Assembly (NCBI GenBank): GCA_026387175.1
Contig: JAPLME010000006.1
Location: forward strand, 108,078-172,077
Source of the DNA: Candidatus Omnitrophota bacterium
Lineage (GTDB): Bacteria; Omnitrophota; Gorgyraeia; 2-01-FULL-45-10
Length of the DNA: 64,000 bases
Direction: 5' to 3'
Shown: positions 3,015 to 59,370 of the stretch, piece by piece
Numbering within the stretch: position 1 is the stretch's first letter
Layout of the letters: every line of letters begins with the position of its first letter
Program-made: the position numbers and the translations under genes
Notes under the pieces: generated by a model
The model's input: only the letters and a program-made list of their open reading frames with translations
What the model was told of the DNA's origin: nothing
The model's database searches: none

Positions 3015-3742
3015 ATAGAAGGGCGAACAGCCTTTATGTACAACGAACCTGAGAACTCGCGCAGAATCGGAGTTGCCTCGAACATACGTCCCATCGCCGA
3101 AACCATACCGATCAAGGACCGGGGCACATACGGATGCAGCCAGTCAAAAGGCGCTATCTCGATCTCCCTAAAGCCCGATTCCCGCAATGTCTTCCTTAAC
3201 TTCCATCGGACAAATGCGGTCTCATTCGGCGAAACTTTAGGAAATAGGCCGCGGAACCTGCGCTCGGCCCAAACTTGCGGATTGAGCATATTGGGTTCGG
3301 TAAAACTGATTATACCATTAGGCTTCAGCAGTCGGAAAATTACTTTGAGCGCTTCCTGGAGATCAAGATGATGTAAGATCGAAGAGCCGATGATCGCGTC
3401 GAACGGGCCGTCCATATCGCAATCCTCAAATCGCCTTTTCACAAAGCGGACCCTGTCTTCCGGCAAATGCCGCGCCCTTGCCTTATTCAGCAGATCTTCC
3501 GAAATATCGACGGCCACTATACAGGCCCCTTTTTTGGCAAAGATCTCGGTGAAGAGCCCTGTGCCGCAACCGATCTCCAGGACACGCGCGCCCGGACGAA
3601 GCCGCGCGCCGGAGGCCACCATCTCCGCGCGCCGTTCGGCGCGCAAACGGCCGGCCGGCGTGGCCCATCCCCAGAGCAGTTCGGTATCGCCTTCGGCGAG
3701 ATATTTTCCATGTTCTATCTCGTGAGCGGCCCGTGTATTCAT
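3011..3742 (-). CDS. Class I SAM-dependent methyltransferase (start re-assigned to MNTRAAHEIEH)
   Basis: Motif VLEIGCGTGLFTEIFAKKGACIVAVDISEDLL and AIIGSSILHHL. The track ORF 3011..3835 overlaps the upstream gene by 97 nt. The internal ATG at 3740-3742 forms an ATGA overlap with the upstream stop at 3739-3741. Confidence 0.7.
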   Translation of the reverse strand: MNTRAAHEIEHGKYLAEGDTELLWGWATPAGRLRAERRAEMVASGARLRPGARVLEIGCGTGLFTEIFAKKGACIVAVDISEDLLNKARARHLPEDRVRFVKRRFEDCDMDGPFDAIIGSSILHHLDLQEALKVIFRLLKPNGIISFTEPNMLNPQVWAERRFRGLFPKVSPNETAFVRWKLRKTLRESGFREIEIAPFDWLHPYVPRSLIGMVSAMGRMFEATPILREFSGSLYIKAVRPSI

Positions 3743-13875: not shown

Positions 13876-15333
13876 TCAATACCTGTTCCATACTATTTTC
13901 ACCACGTACTGTTTGAGCCGCCTGCCGACCTTATTATTGAACGCGGACTTCACGGCGGTGCCGAACCAACTCTTCCACACTGCATCCATCAAAGTCCATA
14001 TATAGTATTTAATCCTATCCTTACCGCCCTTCTCTTTCATTATAAGTCGAACCCAGTTATCATGATAGTACCCGATCTTTTCCTTGGAGAGAGCCGGCAA
14101 GTCAAGGATCGAATCCTTCCTCTCTTCGAAACCATGTTTATCGGGTATGCCGGCAGGCATGAAACCTTTTTCCTCGCATACAGACCTGAGGACCGTACCC
14201 TTATAAGGATAGAATATATTTATGCCGTATGTGGATATCGACGGAAGACCTGCCATAGTCTTTATAGAATCATCTATCATCTCCGCAGTTTCAAAGGGAA
14301 GGCCTATTATGCATGACACCATAGTATTGATTCCGTGCCTGTGGCAGGTCTCGAAAGACTTCACAAGCACCTCTCTAGATATATTCCGTTTCATCACTTC
14401 GTTCCGGATGTAATCATTGCCCGACTCAACGCTCATCATAAGCGTCTTGCAGCCCGCTCGCTTCAATGACGCACAAACGTCATCATTGATGTGATTGGAG
14501 CGGGCCGTACACCAGAAAGGTCTTCTGATGGTCTTCTCATAAATAGCACAGAATTCCGTGATCCACCGTTTGTCGGACAGGAAAAGGTCATCCTGGAAAC
14601 ATAGAAGCTTATCGTTCTGTATCCTGTATTTTGTCAGGGTAGACGTTATCTCGCGCATCACGCTTTCAACGGTCCTGTAGCGCATGCGGTTCGTCGCCAT
14701 GCCGTATACTTTTCCGAGCGCCTCATTCGAACAGAATGTGCAACGATACGGACACCCTCTGTTAAAATGGAACAGGGCTACGTTCTGCCGGTCGATGATA
14801 TCCTGATACGGGAAGAGCTCGGTCGCCGGAAATGGCAAGGCGTCGAGATCGGCCATAAGCGGCGCGAGCTGATTCTTCACTATCCCGCCTGAGACCGAGT
14901 CCCTGTACGCGAGGTTTGGCACACTGCGCCACTCATCACCCTTTTCCAGTTTCGAGACGAGATCTAAAAGCGAGAACTCGCCTTCACCCATAATGACAGC
15001 ATCGAGCGGGCTCGCTTCTTCGATCACCACTTCAGGGAATAAGGTGGTAAAGACGCCGCCGCATACGACCAGACACGGATAGGCGCTCTTAATGCGCCGC
15101 GCGAGATCCCTTACATAAGGAAACTGGGTCTCGACAGCGGTGAATCCGACCACTGCAGGCTTGCGCGCCTTTATACCATCAAGAACACTTCCGATCTTCT
15201 TTACGCTATCTATGTAATTTATCCTGACTTCATGCCCGTTCGCCTTGAGCACGGCGCCTATCGACGCAAGGCCCGGATGATACGGCAGGCCGTGAAACGA
15301 TGACACATCCGGATATATCAACTCAACCTTCAT
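13876..15333 (-). CDS. B12-binding-domain radical SAM enzyme (class B)
   Basis: N-terminal MKVELIYPD...GHEVRINY...VVCGGVFTTLFPE (GGxHxT-like B12 domain). Radical SAM motif FNRGCPYRCTFCSNE. Confidence 0.8.
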   Translation of the reverse strand: MKVELIYPDVSSFHGLPYHPGLASIGAVLKANGHEVRINYIDSVKKIGSVLDGIKARKPAVVGFTAVETQFPYVRDLARRIKSAYPCLVVCGGVFTTLFPEVVIEEASPLDAVIMGEGEFSLLDLVSKLEKGDEWRSVPNLAYRDSVSGGIVKNQLAPLMADLDALPFPATELFPYQDIIDRQNVALFHFNRGCPYRCTFCSNEALGKVYGMATNRMRYRTVESVMREITSTLTKYRIQNDKLLCFQDDLFLSDKRWITEFCAIYEKTIRRPFWCTARSNHINDDVCASLKRAGCKTLMMSVESGNDYIRNEVMKRNISREVLVKSFETCHRHGINTMVSCIIGLPFETAEMIDDSIKTMAGLPSISTYGINIFYPYKGTVLRSVCEEKGFMPAGIPDKHGFEERKDSILDLPALSKEKIGYYHDNWVRLIMKEKGGKDRIKYYIWTLMDAVWKSWFGTAVKSAFNNKVGRRLKQYVVKIVWNRY

Positions 15334-32734: not shown

Positions 32735-33259
32735 TTATTGAGCATCTCTTCGATCAGGCAACACCGATAGAAATTTATCCGCGAGATTTATGGCACTGAT
32801 GGCAATGCTCTTAAGCTCCTCTATATTCTTCATCCTTTCCTGATAGAGCTTGGCTGTCTTCTGCTCTTCTTCGGTAAGCTCGCCGCCTGCCGACCGGACG
32901 ATCGCGTTAAACTCATCCAGCATACTGGAAACCTCATTCGCCCTCTTCTGGATGCCGCTCTTGATCTTATTAGCGATTATATTCTTAACATCCAGGTTTG
33001 CCTCATAATAGTCTCTGCGCGATCCTTTGATCCAGATATTCTTGACGGCCCCCCATTTTTCAAGCTCCCGTATGTTGAGACTTATCGAACCTTTGCTGAC
33101 TTTCAGCTTACCCATCAGGTCATCGAGCGATAAAGGCTTGTCGCTTAAATAAAGCACCGCATACAACTGAGCTATAAATCGGTTTAATCCAAAACTGTCG
33201 CACATCTTACCTATGCTCTCTATAAACTTATCTTGCGCACTTTCTAGTTTAGAATTCAT
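32735..33259 (-). CDS. GbsR/MarR-type winged-helix transcriptional regulator
   Basis: 174 aa with an HTH core FIAQLYAVLYLSDKPLSLDDLMGKLKVSKGSISLNIRELEKWGAV, typical of the GbsR/MarR fold. Strong RBS AAAGAGGAGACA 5 nt upstream of the ATG. Confidence 0.55.
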   Translation of the reverse strand: MNSKLESAQDKFIESIGKMCDSFGLNRFIAQLYAVLYLSDKPLSLDDLMGKLKVSKGSISLNIRELEKWGAVKNIWIKGSRRDYYEANLDVKNIIANKIKSGIQKRANEVSSMLDEFNAIVRSAGGELTEEEQKTAKLYQERMKNIEELKSIAISAINLADKFLSVLPDRRDAQ

Positions 33260-33283
33260 TGTCTCCTCTTTAGTATTTATATT

Positions 33284-33301
33284 GTTTAAAACATATTAAA
33301 C
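33284..33301. promoter_or_regulatory. Inverted repeat GTTTAA-N6-TTAAAC (candidate operator), just downstream of the promoter -10
   Basis: Perfect 6-bp arms with a 6-bp spacer. A near-identical copy, GTTTAG-N6-TTAAAC, lies at 41710..41727 in the same position relative to a second promoter. Confidence 0.45.
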
Positions 33302-33309
33302 GTTGAATA

Positions 33310-33338
33310 AGTATACTACACCACTGATATCGTGTCAA
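33310..33338 (-). promoter_or_regulatory. Sigma70-like promoter for the regulator gene (TTGACA-N17-TATACT on the minus strand)
   Basis: The minus-strand -35 TTGACA is the reverse complement of 33333-33338, and the -10 TATACT is the reverse complement of 33310-33315. The spacer is 17 nt. The element lies in the 87-bp intergenic gap upstream of the regulator. Confidence 0.5.
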
Positions 33339-33346
33339 TTAATATG

Positions 33347-34849
33347 TTATAATCTAGTTCTGAACTCTTCCAATAGCCTTTTATACACCAAATCATCTGT
33401 TTCTGCCTCTTTTATCTCATCATACCTGTCTTTTGGGAAGCGAACATAAAATGAAAAGGTTCGAAATAGGCCCTCAAGCTCTTTGCGGGTCATCCCTTTT
33501 GGCACAAATTGAACGCCGATAAAAGCCGTCGCATCGTAATCAGGGTCCAAACCCTCCTCCTCGCACAATTTTCTGATAGGAGTACCTTTAAAAGGCGCTA
33601 ATAAGCTGACTGAGAAGGAATCGGGCTTTACCAATCTATTCAGCTCTATGGTATCGAAGATATGCTTTCTGGTTTCACGAGGCAGGCCTATTATGTTATA
33701 TGAAGATACCCTTATGCCTAATGAGCTGACGATCCTGAACTTCTCTATTATCTCCTCGTTAGTCATCCTTCTGTTCATGACTTCTCTTCTTATGAAATCA
33801 TTGCCGCTCTCTATCCCTATTGCGAATGTCCTGCACCCCATCTCTTTCAATATCCCTGCCTTCTCCTCAGTGATAGTGCTTACGCGCGCATAGATAAGAA
33901 ACGGAAGACCGATCTCCTTTTTGTAGGCATCGGCGTATTCTCTTATATAAGCGGCATTCAAAGAAGTGAAATCCTCATCCCAAAAGCGGATAAAGTTGAA
34001 ATTATATTTAGCGATTAGGTTTTTAAGCTCTTCAATGCTCCTGGGTATTTTTTTTACCCTGCGATAAACTCCGAGTTCCTTAAACCTTGTTTTAAAGACA
34101 CTGTTCACGCAATATGAGCAATCGAACAGGCATCCTCTTGACAGTTCATAATTAAGCATCTTATATTGTTCTCCGTCAAACGGCCTGTAAAAATGAATCG
34201 GGTCAAAAGATCCGTAATCCGGGTCCGGCAGGCTCGAGATATCTTCCAGCGGCATGCCGGGATTTTTTATTATAACGCCGTCCTGCTTGAACCATATCCC
34301 ACGCACCGTGCTCAACGGTTTCGCATGCTCGAGCGCATCCATCATGGCCAATATCGTCTTCTCACCTTCTCCGGTACAAATTATATCGCATGCCGGAGAA
34401 GCAAGCGTTTCCTCGGGCAGCAGTATGGCCTGGCAGCCTCCGTAGATGACCTGTATATTATATTTTTTCTTGAACGGCAGCAGGAACCGGCTGCTGAATT
34501 TAAAATCCACGGTTAATGCGCTTACGCCTATCAGATCCGGACGAAAATCGTTCAAAAGCTTATCGAAATCGGCTTTGTAGTCCGTTCTCTTCAAATCGCA
34601 ACCTTCGACCATGATACCGAAATCGTATTTATAAAAATCCTTCCTGTCGCGTATGACCTGATCGGCATCGAGCGGCGCGCTCTTAAAGAACATCTTTTTG
34701 TAAAGTTCGTAGCTAAATTTCTCGTAATCCGGAAAATCGAACAGCCGGACTTCGTGGCCGTGGCTTTTCAGTACGCTGATCAGGATAGGGATATTAAGCG
34801 GAATGTTCCCTTGGCCTGCCCGTGACGGGTTAACAAATAAAACCTTCAT
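33347..34849 (-). CDS. B12-binding-domain radical SAM enzyme (class B)
   Basis: MKVLFVNPS...HGHEVRLFDF; ELSRGCLFDCSYCVNS. Confidence 0.8.
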   Translation of the reverse strand: MKVLFVNPSRAGQGNIPLNIPILISVLKSHGHEVRLFDFPDYEKFSYELYKKMFFKSAPLDADQVIRDRKDFYKYDFGIMVEGCDLKRTDYKADFDKLLNDFRPDLIGVSALTVDFKFSSRFLLPFKKKYNIQVIYGGCQAILLPEETLASPACDIICTGEGEKTILAMMDALEHAKPLSTVRGIWFKQDGVIIKNPGMPLEDISSLPDPDYGSFDPIHFYRPFDGEQYKMLNYELSRGCLFDCSYCVNSVFKTRFKELGVYRRVKKIPRSIEELKNLIAKYNFNFIRFWDEDFTSLNAAYIREYADAYKKEIGLPFLIYARVSTITEEKAGILKEMGCRTFAIGIESGNDFIRREVMNRRMTNEEIIEKFRIVSSLGIRVSSYNIIGLPRETRKHIFDTIELNRLVKPDSFSVSLLAPFKGTPIRKLCEEEGLDPDYDATAFIGVQFVPKGMTRKELEGLFRTFSFYVRFPKDRYDEIKEAETDDLVYKRLLEEFRTRL

Positions 34850-40599: not shown

Positions 40600-41664
40600 T
40601 TAAGTCCTGTGAGCTTCCTTTCTGTGTCCTTTAAATATATCCTCTATTATCCTGCTTACATCGTATTTGAACTGCCACGACGGATAGTGCTCCTTAAACT
40701 TCGAAACATCCGATATCCACCATATGTGGTCGCCTATCCTGTTCTTATCTACATATTCATAATTGAACTTTTTACCGCAGATCTTCTCGCATAGTTCTAT
40801 CGCCTCAAGCACCGAGCAATTCGAGAACCTTGAGCCACCCATATTATAGACCTCACCCTGGCGGGGCTTGAGATAGAAATGATAAAAGGCGTTTACGAGG
40901 TCTTGAGAGTGTATGTTATCGCGCACCTGTTTCCCTTTATAGCCGTAGACCGTATATCTCTTGCCTTCGATACAGCATTTTACCAGATACGCCAGAAAAC
41001 CGTGAAGTTCTGCGCCCGAATGAGCGGGCCCCGTGAGGCATCCGCATCTGAATGCGGCCGTATTGAGGCCAAAGTACCTTCCGTACTCCTGCACAAGCAT
41101 ATCCGCGGCGACCTTAGAAGCGCCGAACAGGCTGTGGAGGCAATTATCTATGCTCATCGACTCATCGATACCGTTATAATACTTGTGGTCCTTGCGTAAT
41201 TCGTAGCGTTTATCAAGCTCTACCAGAGGAAGCGAATTCGGGTTATCACCGTAGACTTTGTTCGTCGAAGTGAATATAAAAGCGGCCGCGGGAGCGAAGC
41301 GCCTGAAAGATTCAAGAAGCACCAATGTGCCATCGGCATTTATGCTGAAATCCGTATATGGATCGCGCGCCGCCCAGTCATGCGACGGCTGCGCCGCGGT
41401 ATGCACTATAAGGTCGAAACTGTATTCGCCAAACAGTTTCTCGATGGCGGACCTGTCCCTTATATCGGCATCATAATGGGTATAATCGGCGACCGTTTCG
41501 ATGAGCAGCTTCTTGTTCCAGTTAACAGAGGCCTCCTCTCCAAAGAACGACCTGCGCATGTCATTATCTACCCCGACTATCTTGAACCCTTTCTGAGAAA
41601 AAAACTTGACGCACTCAGACCCTACCAGGCCCGCCGAACCTGTGATTAGCGCTATTTTACTCAT
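40600..41664 (-). CDS. NAD-dependent nucleotide-sugar epimerase, CDP-paratose 2-epimerase (Tyv/RfbE)-like extended SDR
   Basis: [42 protein letters not shown]; colinear with Tyv. Confidence 0.65.
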
Positions 41665-41709
41665 ATTTTATGGCATCCCATTTCTCAAATTTCCTTATGT
41701 TTTCATATC

Positions 41710-41727
41710 GTTTAGAACGTTTTAAAC
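41710..41727. promoter_or_regulatory. Inverted repeat GTTTAG-N6-TTAAAC (second copy of the candidate operator)
   Basis: 5 of 6 arm positions match, with the same 6-bp spacing as the copy at 33284..33301, and it has the same placement downstream of a -10 element. Confidence 0.4.
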
Positions 41728-41736
41728 ATTCTGTGA

Positions 41737-41766
41737 ATTGTACCCTATTCACATACCGATTGTCAA
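41737..41766 (-). promoter_or_regulatory. Sigma70-like promoter (TTGACA-N18-TACAAT on the minus strand) in the 119-bp gap upstream of 40600..41664
   Basis: The -35 is the reverse complement of 41761-41766 and the -10 is the reverse complement of 41737-41742. It is followed by the inverted repeat at 41710..41727. Confidence 0.45.
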
Positions 41767-41783
41767 CATGCTTTAATCTTGGA

Positions 41784-43169
41784 CTATGAGAAAAAGCATT
41801 TATTGCATATCGGGATCTTGCCATGCAGCATATTTTTGCGAAACCGCCTGTATTTCGGCGAGTTCCAGATATCCCTTATGGAAACATCTCGATCTATCTT
41901 CAATCCGTCCAAAAGGACCGTATTGAAGTCTATGCAGCATGGGGTGACGTTTCCGTTACACATGATTGAAATGGCCCTGTAGGCCCAACCGCACAAATTC
42001 TTTTTTCCTTCTATTATGGCTTTCTTATCCTTCTCGTTCAGCGTAAGGTCCTTTTGCAGCGGAGCTATCGAATATCCGTCCTCATCCGATAAACCGGTAA
42101 ATTCATGGAAAAAGCCTTTAAAGAGCAGCCTGTCCGCACCCAGCTCCTCCTTAAGCCTCTTAGCGCCTCCTTTCTGGCTCTCCGAATACCTTGTAAGGAT
42201 CATCTGGACGACTACCTCCGGCTTTAAGAGGCCCTTCTCCTTTTTTGCGGCGGTGAGGTTCTTTACAAATTCGAAGACAAGCTCAAAATTTCCGCCCTTC
42301 CTGAAGCTCTCGTATGCTGTCTTGTCCGTCCCGTCGACCGAAATACTGATCAGGTCCACACCTGTTCCTAACAGCCTGCGAACCAATTCTTTCGAGTCCG
42401 GTATATTGCCGTTTGTGTGCAGCTCTATGCGCGTGTAAGGAGATGATATCCTGCGCAGCTTTTTCAGGTAATCGATCATCTTATTATTCAAAAGCGGCTC
42501 GCCGAAGATGAAGGGATATATCGTGTCGAAATATCTGAAATTTATCCTGTTCTTTTCCGTTATATTGTCGAATAGCTCCTGCGGTATAAGCATCGGCGGC
42601 CTGTTAAGCTGCCCGAGGCCGGTAGGGCAACCCCTGCATTGCAGATTGCATATAGTGGTCGTCTCGATCGATATCTCCGAAGGGAACCCCAGGCTCACTC
42701 CCATCCTGAATCCCATCGAAATATGTATCAGTATCTTATTCACAAAAAAATAGAGCTTCTTCCGGAATGTTGCGAGAAATTGCCCCTTTGTTATGGCCCG
42801 CACTATCTCTTTGCTGCCGAAATCTATCATGAATATCTTTTTAAAGTTCATGAACAACAGCAGGAAAGCGGTATTAAGGCTGAAGCCGTAATCTATTATA
42901 GCGGCATCGAAGCCCATCCCTTTAAATATCTTCAATTGTTTCACAACTGAGGGTGCGCCTTTAGGCTCAAGGCTTGCCAGCTCAAGGACCGTTATTCCAA
43001 AGTCGTGATTTTTTGCCACATCTTCGGTGTTCGCGGTGATAAGCGTTATATCGTTTTCGGGAAAATATTTTCTGGCAACGGTTGCCGACGTATAGGCCCA
43101 GGAATAATTCGAAAAAAGGGCTATCTTCTTAAGGTTACTCATTTGCTCAGGGGCCTCCATGTCGATCAT
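41784..43169 (-). CDS. Radical SAM / SPASM-domain protein with an about 165-aa N-terminal extension of unknown function
   Basis: ETTTICNLQCRGCPTG radical SAM motif. C-terminal CGWAYRAISIMCNGNVTPCCIDFN...CNKCFFS auxiliary-cluster region. The N-terminal 165 aa has alternating beta-alpha character and no recognised motif. Confidence 0.6.
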   Translation of the reverse strand: MIDMEAPEQMSNLKKIALFSNYSWAYTSATVARKYFPENDITLITANTEDVAKNHDFGITVLELASLEPKGAPSVVKQLKIFKGMGFDAAIIDYGFSLNTAFLLLFMNFKKIFMIDFGSKEIVRAITKGQFLATFRKKLYFFVNKILIHISMGFRMGVSLGFPSEISIETTTICNLQCRGCPTGLGQLNRPPMLIPQELFDNITEKNRINFRYFDTIYPFIFGEPLLNNKMIDYLKKLRRISSPYTRIELHTNGNIPDSKELVRRLLGTGVDLISISVDGTDKTAYESFRKGGNFELVFEFVKNLTAAKKEKGLLKPEVVVQMILTRYSESQKGGAKRLKEELGADRLLFKGFFHEFTGLSDEDGYSIAPLQKDLTLNEKDKKAIIEGKKNLCGWAYRAISIMCNGNVTPCCIDFNTVLLDGLKIDRDVSIRDIWNSPKYRRFRKNMLHGKIPICNKCFFS

Positions 43170-52837: not shown

Positions 52838-53911
52838 CTACGCTCCGATACGGATGCCTTTATTGTCGGGACAGACCTTGCAGGGATCCGGGATCCGGCA
52901 ATTATCCTTAGACAGGAAGGCCCTCCGCATATCTTTAAAGAAAGCGTTGTTCCAGACATTTTCGTCTTTGTAGCTGCCATGCCCGGACATATTGAGCAGC
53001 ATCATCGAACAGCTGGAGACGTTGCCGTCCCCGTCGAACCTTATCTGGGAAAAATGCGTTTCGCAGTTATTTTCGCTCATATTCCTATCGACCAATAGCG
53101 GCGGAGTAAGCTTCCTCCTGATGGCGGCAGGATAGGACGCGAATATGGCTCTCATCTCGTCGATAACCTTCTTATCGGCCATAAGGGACCTCTCCTCGGC
53201 CCTGAGGCCGTCATAAGGGGCCGACAGGAAGTTGCAGAAGAAAGAGTGGTCGGCGCCCAGCGCAATACTGACATCCACCATATAGGGAATGAATTTGTAG
53301 TTATGCCTATCGATTATATATGACAACTTTACCTTCACACTTGAAGACCTCCGCCTCTTCTCTTCGACCAGCATCCTGACGGAGTCGTAAATCTCCTGAT
53401 AGGTTTCCGGGCCCATGCCGGTCATACGGCTGAACTCTTCCGAATTGTGCCCGTTTATGCTTATAGTGATGCCGTCCAGGGCCGAATTCAATATATTATC
53501 GATATTCTTCCGGATCATCGTGCCGTTGGAGAAGGTCTTTACGGTCATCTTCTTGAGCGCCGCGTAATCGACCATCTTGAAAAAATCCTTGTTCAGAAGC
53601 GGCTCGCCGGAACCTATTATATGCACCGTCGCAGCGTTCTTGAATCGGTTTATGATCTCCTTGAACCTTGCCAGGTCCATATCCTTTATGGACTGCTGGG
53701 CGTGGGCGTAGTCGCCGGGGACGCGCCCCGAATGCGTCGGACACATGTCACAGGAGAGCGTGCAACGGCCGGTCGCCACTATGGAGATGGTGACGGGATC
53801 GTAATGCAGCATCTCCTTCTTCCCTGAAAGAAGGTACCGTAAGTAATTGCTCTTTTGGGCCAGGGTATGAGGGGCCAGGACCATGTTGATCATATCTCTT
53901 GCGATACTCAT
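52838..53911 (-). CDS. Radical SAM / SPASM-domain protein
   Basis: ATGRCTLSCDMCPTHSG radical SAM motif. C-terminal CETHF...SSCSMML...CRIPDPCKVCPDN auxiliary-cluster cysteines. Confidence 0.65.
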   Translation of the reverse strand: MSIARDMINMVLAPHTLAQKSNYLRYLLSGKKEMLHYDPVTISIVATGRCTLSCDMCPTHSGRVPGDYAHAQQSIKDMDLARFKEIINRFKNAATVHIIGSGEPLLNKDFFKMVDYAALKKMTVKTFSNGTMIRKNIDNILNSALDGITISINGHNSEEFSRMTGMGPETYQEIYDSVRMLVEEKRRRSSSVKVKLSYIIDRHNYKFIPYMVDVSIALGADHSFFCNFLSAPYDGLRAEERSLMADKKVIDEMRAIFASYPAAIRRKLTPPLLVDRNMSENNCETHFSQIRFDGDGNVSSCSMMLLNMSGHGSYKDENVWNNAFFKDMRRAFLSKDNCRIPDPCKVCPDNKGIRIGA

Positions 53912-53912
53912 A

Positions 53913-59188: not shown

Positions 59189-59370
59189 TTTCTTACTCTC
59201 CTTTGTTCATTAATTGTCCGGTATTACTGTCGGATACTGCCCGTTTTGCAGTCTTTAATGCGGCATATTCCATAATATATTAGTATAATATGTTACTATA
59301 AACGGCTCTTTTTAGCAAGCATAACGCACGAAGGGCTTTGTCAGGATAAATACAGGTTTTTGGGCTATGC

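Follow-up and report, generated by a model that had tools for sequence, protein, structure and literature searches.

Two small winged-helix proteins of the GbsR type, CydE of Alishewanella sp. WH16-1 and CioR of Chromobacterium violaceum, are encoded by the first genes of the operons that they repress, cydEAB and cioRAB (PMC11837568). The DNase footprint of CydE contains the half-sites TTTCAGAAA and TTTCTGAAA, which together form a spacer-less 9+9 palindrome (PMC6096048). The operator of GbsR lies downstream of the transcription start, and a roadblock mechanism was proposed for it (PMC7396694). Four sub-groups of the GbsR family have been described, none of which is associated with glycan genes, and the aromatic cage is absent in the sub-groups that are not linked to osmostress (PMC6207618). 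Genomic contexts were not consistent within the Mj223-like group in a family survey of 2018 (PMC6207618), and neither the operator nor the function of Mj223 is known (PMC6207618, PMC7396694). Here, we describe a regulator gene of this type and the promoter and predicted operator in front of it in a 64,000-nt stretch of DNA from a Candidatus Omnitrophota bacterium (assembly GCA_026387175.1, contig JAPLME010000006.1, positions 108,078 to 172,077). This whole stretch is referred to as the window.

The regulator gene follows an 87-bp gap that carries a promoter (P2) and a palindromic operator (O-reg). A second promoter (P1), followed by another copy of the operator (O-epi), lies upstream in the same gene array. 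Comparison of these sequences with those of related loci makes it likely that a dimer of the regulator binds both palindromes, represses its own unit and the unit upstream of it, probably blocks read-through, and is released by a signal. The features around the regulator gene are as follows.

Positions 32735-33259, minus strand: gene for a winged-helix regulator of 174 residues from the MarR family (Mj223/GbsR-type subfamily), which presumably binds both operators.
Positions 33349-33347, minus strand: stop codon (TAA) of the upstream B12-binding radical-SAM gene, read from the sequence.
Positions 33338-33333, minus strand: -35 hexamer (TTGACA) of P2, the internal promoter of the regulator, read from the sequence as part of an 11/12 promoter match.
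Positions 33315-33310, minus strand: -10 hexamer (TATACT) of P2, separated from the -35 hexamer by 17 nt, read from the sequence and found in the promoter scan.
Positions 33301-33296 and 33289-33284, minus strand: GTTTAA and TTAAAC on either side of tatgtt, a perfect 6/6 inverted repeat according to the repeat finder.
Positions 33283-33302, read on the minus strand: operator O-reg, a 20-bp palindrome of the half-sites CGTTTAATAT and GTTTTAAACA, which encloses GTTTAA-N6-TTAAAC (33284-33301).
Positions 33268-33263, minus strand: Shine-Dalgarno sequence (GAGGAG), read from the sequence.
Positions 33259-33257, minus strand: start codon (ATG) of the regulator, whose homologues share an MNxKLE N-terminus.

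An earlier note on this DNA, made from the letters alone, had recognized a near-consensus promoter TTGACA-N17-TATACT on the minus strand, and the promoter scan agrees, giving P2 an 11/12 match to the sigma-70-type consensus. The stretch between TATACT and GTTTAA is 7 nt long (tattcaa, minus strand). O-reg, which reads CGTTTAATATGTTTTAAACA on the minus strand (33302-33283), is predicted to extend from about +1/+2 to +21, close to the +1 to +20 that the note had proposed. The note had taken the repeat GTTTAA-aacata-TTAAAC (33284-33301) as the operator. The repeat is indeed perfect, but it is not the whole site. It forms the core of a 20-bp palindrome that has no spacer and whose consensus consists of the half-sites CGTTTAGAAC and GTTCTAAACG. 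In other words, the presumed spacer of the repeat (AAYGTT) is itself part of the conserved motif.

The second site was overlooked by the note and has the following parts.

Positions 41766-41761 and 41742-41737, minus strand: promoter P1, TTGACA and TACAAT with 18 nt between them, an 11/12 match read from the sequence.
Positions 41709-41728, read on the minus strand: operator O-epi, with the half-sites TGTTTAAAAC and GTTCTAAACG, 8 nt past the -10 box of P1.
Positions 40600-41664, minus strand: NAD-dependent sugar epimerase/dehydratase gene, the first gene of the P1 unit (Pfam Epimerase, E 5e-40).

The core of O-epi, GTTTAAaacgttCTAAAC at 41727-41710 on the minus strand, has one mismatch to the GTTTAAN6TTAAAC pattern. 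P1 and P2 both have the hexamers and the 16-18-nt spacer of a sigma-70 promoter, and such promoters are conserved at orthologous positions in related loci. The P1 unit consists of nine genes (41664-33347) without gaps, and the P2 unit consists of the regulator (33259) and all genes downstream of it, with no gap larger than 50 bp up to the edge of the window. The epimerase gene is 81% identical to the gene that directly follows the regulator in the closest relative (L143), and therefore it stands behind the operator in both arrangements. When the two gaps are aligned, they correspond only in the -35 box, the -10 box and the operator. This confined likeness means that neither gap is a recent copy of the other, and a recent duplication of one promoter region into the other was ruled out.

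The leader of the P1 unit also contains a 6-codon mini-open reading frame on the minus strand (41662-41682, ATG GGA TGC CAT AAA ATA TGA, MGCHKI*). It is preceded by AAGGAA, and its stop codon overlaps the ATG of the epimerase gene (ATGA), which itself has only a weak Shine-Dalgarno sequence. The mini-open reading frame may reflect translational coupling, or chance.

How specific is the operator to these two places? A weight matrix was built solely from sites in other genomes and was then scanned over the 64 kb. Exactly two sites were found, at 41709-41728 with 32.8 bits and at 33283-33302 with 26.3 bits. The next independent match in the window reached at most 5.3 bits, and the best match in 30 block shuffles reached 16.3 bits. 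The motif is thus not scattered at random away from promoters, since both sites in the window are promoter-adjacent.

An operator-like sequence was noticed next to P2. At 33339-33352, adjoining the -35 box and overlapping the upstream gene's stop codon, a 14-nt stretch repeats the centre of the P2 operator (TTAATATGTTATAA) in inverted form, with 13 of 14 bases matching. It was considered as a second operator and rejected: it scores 3.6 bits, lacks the GTTTA/TAAAC arms, and is absent in L143. The copy matches only the window-specific centre of the operator and is probably a chance likeness, though CydE too has two sites.

Evidence for the pairing of operator and regulator comes from related loci, which were collected by regulator protein: 22 loci from reference genomes and L143, 23 loci in total. 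In 18 of them, TTGACA-N17/18-TAnnnT is followed by the 20-bp palindrome within 130 nt upstream of the regulator start; one of the 18 (L021) has the symmetric variant CGTTCAAA....TTTGAACG. In two others (L001 and L022), the promoter-operator unit stands at the head of the operon and the regulator is the third or second gene. In 20 of 23 loci, therefore, promoter and palindrome open the transcription unit of the regulator, while in the other three the regulator is embedded beyond the fetched stretch or lies close to a contig end. There is one site per locus (22 loci of up to ~12.5 kb each), and an exact TTGACA occupies the equivalent place in 16 of the 17 genome loci with a proximal site. The orthologous site of L143 is CGTTTAGTATGTTCTAAACG, 6 nt after TATAAT. 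Conservation per position is 1.7-2.0 bits at 13 of the 20 operator positions, as opposed to ~0.1 bits in the promoter spacer. The promoter-operator-regulator arrangement is conserved across the clade.

The position of the palindrome relative to the promoter varies within narrow limits, with the TAnnnT box 0-8 nt upstream of the operator in the related loci. In most loci the palindrome starts 0-1 nt past the -10 hexamer, which corresponds to about -6 to +14. Its position is farther downstream, about +1 to +21, in the window (7 and 8 nt past the hexamer), L143 (6), L027 (5), L018 (5) and L056 (8). Both of these positions fall within the part of a promoter that is occupied by RNA polymerase, and both indicate repression.

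An independent line of evidence started from the motif. Metagenome contigs were scanned with the 18-nt palindrome core, without use of the protein, and at least 120 loci were found. Among the 120 matches listed, 25 have a homologue of the regulator nearby (35-63% identity), whose start lies 5-77 nt downstream of the motif in 24 cases. A promoter of at least 10/12 accompanies 24 of the 25 listed matches with a regulator, as opposed to 2 of the 95 without one. The autoregulation suggested by the earlier note is thus supported, as far as sequence comparison goes, by the arrangement in the reference loci and by these 25 matches. The 95 listed matches without a regulator were considered as members of the regulon, but only two of them (L027 and L035) have a strong promoter, and the rest look like chance hits in unrelated DNA. 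By a rough estimate, for a collection whose size is not established, about a hundred chance matches are expected in such a scan. A repeated context was seen among the regulator-less matches L084, L085, L092, L097 and L121, which come from very large contigs.

At L027 (3125-3505), TTGACA-N17-TATATT is followed after 5 nt by TGTTTAGAATGTTCTAAACA and lies before nonulosonic-acid genes. About 380 nt without an open reading frame of at least 60 residues follow the operator, and then comes a PseF-type cytidylyltransferase-like gene, read by eye. No remnant of a regulator gene was found at L027 at E <=10. The stretch could be a long leader, contain a very small gene, or have lost its regulator.

Extra half-sites were observed just 3' of the palindrome in L087 (~1300-1349), L031, L052, L055, L098, L099, L113, L124, L125 and L128. 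In a group of homologues at 43-44% identity, a third half-site directly follows the palindrome (…ATTCTAAACGTTCTAAAC), and 9-bp direct repeats occur in a row in L087, CGTTTATAA CGTTTATAA CGTTTAGAA CGTTTAGAA CGTTCTAAACG. The sequences suggest that more than one dimer binds, or that binding is cooperative, in those distant lineages.

The expectation of the earlier note that the gene directly downstream encodes a winged-helix GbsR/MarR-like protein is borne out by profile and structure comparisons. The best match to a curated family is to NCBIfam CudC (E 2.9e-21, residues 3-146), and the closest solved structure by sequence is that of Mj223 (PDB 1KU9; E 1.7e-27, 99.7 bits, profile positions 5-159). 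The AlphaFold2 model (AF2; predicted local distance difference test score 86.3) has an N-terminal winged helix-turn-helix followed by two long C-terminal helices. Its elements are helices at residues 3-22, 27-38, 45-52 and 56-68, strands at 72-75 and 84-87, and helices at 91-124 and 130-166. The best Foldseek match of the model is again 1KU9 (E 3.4e-12), and other MarR-like structures come next. Judged by similarity over its full length, the regulator is a member of the GbsR-type (COG1510 / Mj223-like) subfamily of MarR. It scores 76 bits against CudC, where the equivalog cut-off is 218, which makes it a member of the family but no orthologue of either CudC or GbsR. Homologues are labelled GbsR (MarR family) by JGI and NCBI, and precomputed matches on them list PF12802, which with PF01047 represents the MarR family in Pfam.

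An identical protein is on record for a Candidatus Omnitrophica metagenome-assembled genome. The regulator has more than 250 homologues, nearly all of them 164 residues long and 57-83% identical, and the named organisms are almost all Omnitrophota. A profile search against 1.84 billion cluster representatives returned 45 clusters at E <=1e-30 and 1,186 at E <=1e-10. In other words, the close sub-family is small and lies within a large family. Over the whole range of 35 to 100% overall identity, hardly any change is seen in the recognition helix (SKGNxSxNIRxLE), the wing (KGSRKDYYEA) or the operator core.

Two further observations concern the other end of the protein. The regulator in the window has a 10-residue C-terminal extension (SVLPDRRDAQ, encoded at 32735-32764) that is absent in nearly all of the 164-residue homologues. 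The metagenome-assembled genome CAYHAE01 encodes two paralogous regulators (L002 6001-6495 and L004 3488-3985), and each of them has an operator of its own. The two have almost the same N-terminal DNA-binding half (~95 residues) but diverged C-terminal helical domains, and their overall identity is 78%. This pattern fits a shared DNA specificity combined with different partners or signals.

Taken together with what is known of the characterized relatives CydE, CioR and GbsR, these comparisons lead to a model whose statements on binding, direction of regulation, start site, roadblock and ligand are all predictions. A dimer of the GbsR/Mj223-type regulator would bind O-reg upstream of its own gene and also O-epi, the better copy, at P1. 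Bound at about +1 to +21, it would repress its own unit (33259 downstream) and the nine-gene unit 41664-33347 by blocking either open-complex formation or promoter escape. A roadblock to upstream read-through is also probable at both operators, because both promoters lie inside a continuous array of genes on the same strand. No terminator-like site was found in either gap (33260-33346 or 41665-41783), and so transcription from upstream probably runs into both operators. Release would come from a ligand or signal that acts on the variable C-terminal helical domain. The outcome would be negative autoregulation of a nonulosonic-acid/surface-glycan supercluster.

Several results weigh against this model. 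The regulator fails to reach the curated cut-off in any of the family models that were tried, including the gathering scores of Pfam (MarR_2, 18.2 bits as opposed to 27; HTH_11, 23.8 as opposed to 25). O-reg is weaker than a typical site, with a T at position 8 and 26 bits, where most sites have 30-34. The shift of 5-8 nt past the -10 box in the window and a few relatives departs from the majority, in which the palindrome abuts that box. The within-genome scan covered 64 kb. Co-occurrence of motif and regulator would, by itself, also be compatible with another protein as the binder. Lastly, a search of the 64 kb for GTTTAAN6TTAAAC with at most two mismatches gave 2 matches where 2.04 were expected, and promoter-like sites are not enriched in the window either (33, with 27 +/- 5.5 expected). 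These counts, and the chance-like appearance of the 95 regulator-less metagenome matches, are what one would expect if a chance palindrome had fallen beside a chance promoter in an AT-rich intergenic spacer. A loose count at chance level is uninformative alone, which is why it was replaced by the matrix trained on other genomes. Both loose matches lie within the two gaps, which make up 206 bp of the 64,000, and are 7-8 nt after 11/12 promoters on the minus strand. The sites score 26 and 33 bits, where the shuffles do not exceed 16, both have promoters, and conservation extends over dozens of genomes. A chance origin has next to no probability and is refuted by the matrix scores and the conservation profile.

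Could a different transcription factor, such as a global regulator, bind the conserved operator, with the adjacent regulator merely a frequent neighbour or target? The sub-threshold family scores, the fact that physical binding is a prediction, and the L027 site with no regulator gene nearby would allow for it. It is nevertheless unlikely. Motif and regulator stay paired at protein identities between 35 and 100% and despite reshuffling of the cluster, the DNA-binding helix and the wing vary as little as the operator does, the site footprinted for a GbsR-type relative is built in the same way, and no further site was found in the 64 kb or in the 22 reference loci of up to ~12.5 kb each. Activation, or dual regulation, by the regulator itself in place of autorepression is about as improbable. 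Other MarR-family proteins, SlyA and RovA, act as activators or anti-silencers, and the promoters here lie in AT-rich gaps. However, a site between the -10 box and about +21, in most loci abutting the -10 box, is incompatible with classical activation, and the promoters are already near consensus, so that an activator should not be needed. Moreover, the characterized GbsR, OpuAR, OpcR, CydE and CioR are all repressors. A third alternative is that the palindrome acts as RNA, namely as a hairpin in the 5' untranslated region with an effect on stability, translation or attenuation. In the window, the transcript probably includes the entire palindrome, 88.8% of arm positions are pairable across 20 sites, and symmetric changes occur at positions 1/20, 5/16 and 7/14. 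Such co-variation is, however, equally expected for a site bound by a dimer, and it is the sequence itself that is invariant and not pairing alone (18 of 160 cells are unpaired). The predicted fold is weak (-3.5 kcal/mol, z = -0.7 in its untranslated-region context), and the minimum-energy fold at site 2 leaves the palindrome unused. In most loci the 5' arm begins 0-1 nt past the -10 box, upstream of any plausible start, and therefore cannot be in the RNA. A scan of the window with Rfam at the gathering threshold gave no match, and a tRNA scan of the window gave none either. The RNA reading was rejected on position and sequence invariance, and its probability is very small. A LexA-type box was also considered and dropped: GAAC/GTTC is present, but with zero spacing, and it is tied to the regulator.

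The model of a regulator dimer on its own operator finds its strongest outside support, by analogy, in CydE. CydE and CioR are likened to the regulator by layout and not by comparison of protein sequences; like it, they are small GbsR-type winged-helix proteins. Site 1 of CydE is AT-rich with an AGAA/TTCT core, and the site here, with half-sites GTTTAGAAC and GTTCTAAAC, shares six of nine bases per half-site with it. The targets differ, being cytochrome bd oxidase genes for CydE and CioR and genes of nonulosonic-acid and glycan biosynthesis in the window. CydE also responds to sulfate and has a second, unrelated site, whereas the second site here is 8.4 kb away at another promoter. GbsR, OpuAR, OpcR and CudC of Bacilli and Staphylococci respond to choline or glycine betaine. 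They resemble the regulator in having AT-rich inverted-repeat operators and in being modelled on the Mj223 fold. The GbsR operator has a 4-bp spacer and that of OpcR overlaps the -35 box, whereas the palindrome here is spacer-less and lies past the -10 box. The regulator in the window has no opu or gbs genes nearby. Classical MarR autorepressors (MarR, MepR, OhrR and SlyA) are homodimers that bind 16-20-bp palindromes or pseudopalindromes overlapping their own -10/+1 region. The model of the regulator matches such proteins at Foldseek E values of about 1e-4 to 1e-3. Its C-terminal two-helix domain has the Mj223 topology, and it superposes on MepR and MarR with a large root-mean-square deviation. 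Mj223 (MJ0223 of Methanocaldococcus jannaschii) shares the DNA-binding region LYLSDKPL...SKGNVS...W(I/V)KG(S/E)RK(D/N)YYEA with the regulator but, unlike it, is archaeal.

What these comparisons point to is a clade-wide repressor of the GbsR type that is associated with glycan clusters and has a sharply defined predicted operator, a kind of switch that is already well known. MarR-type autorepression is an ordinary mechanism, and the value of the case comes from its conservation, its second site and the ease of testing it. Omnitrophota are uncultured and mostly ultra-small, so that their gene regulation is approachable by prediction only, and a search of a literature collection found no paper that names both Omnitrophota and GbsR. 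The locus offers a testable regulatory code made up of a 20-bp operator, a consensus promoter that is expected to fire in E. coli, and a protein of 164-174 residues. It suggests that expression of the very large surface-glycan/nonulosonic-acid clusters is switchable and not constitutive. It also adds a glycan-associated branch to a poorly characterized family, with an operator that resembles the footprinted one of CydE. It hints at a recognition mode (half-sites xTTxAGAAx and xTTCTxAAx) shared across the GbsR family, including its structural prototype Mj223. A more far-reaching possibility, which we regard as doubtful, is that the regulator and its operator are a clade-wide master switch of the surface nonulosonic-acid/glycan superclusters of Omnitrophota and related uncultured bacteria. 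The regulator would then form a fifth, glycan-associated GbsR sub-group, with a fast-evolving C-terminal domain that senses either an intermediate of the pathway or a cue from the host or the environment. Operators placed after internal promoters would block both initiation and read-through and would split arrays of >60 kb into switchable modules, and the group would provide a first functional lead for Mj223.

The window as a whole is one continuous minus-strand array of ~57 genes, most of whose junctions overlap or are <35 bp apart. The earlier note had counted two sizeable gaps. Both are real (33260-33346, 87 bp, and 41665-41783, 119 bp), but they are not the only ones, as a third of 182 bp lies at 59189-59370. 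Other apparent gaps (693-979, 3015-3738 and 52981-53912) are artefacts of a crude gene call that missed genes. No operator lies in the third gap, and its promoter match reaches only 9/12. Just upstream of this gap, the end of the preceding gene contains a GC-rich terminator-like hairpin (59422-59407) with TTTTTT after it, and this region may be a boundary between transcription units in the array.

In all genome loci, the regulator is surrounded by genes for sugar modification and glycan assembly, as are 11 of the 12 distant homologues that were checked. The exception is L069, where a papain-type protease-like gene, judged from its translation alone, follows the regulator. The association with opu/gbs or cytochrome bd genes that marks the described sub-groups was not seen in the window, L001-L022, L143 or these distant homologues. 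The neighbours include NeuB-type synthases, CMP-sugar cytidylyltransferases, PseB-like dehydratases, PseC-like genes, DegT aminotransferases, NeuC- or WecB-like 2-epimerases, GT2 and GT4 glycosyltransferases, PMT_2 proteins, flippases, asparagine synthase homologues, and many B12-binding and SPASM radical-SAM enzymes. In the window, Pfam identifies at least nine B12-binding radical-SAM genes (at 13876, 17133, 23183, 28650, 33347, 36823, 49796, 51352 and 53913), and a further one, judged by eye, starts at ~982. SPASM or SPASM-like radical-SAM genes are found at 41784 (Pfam) and 52838 (by eye). This density of radical-SAM genes is unusual for a glycan cluster.

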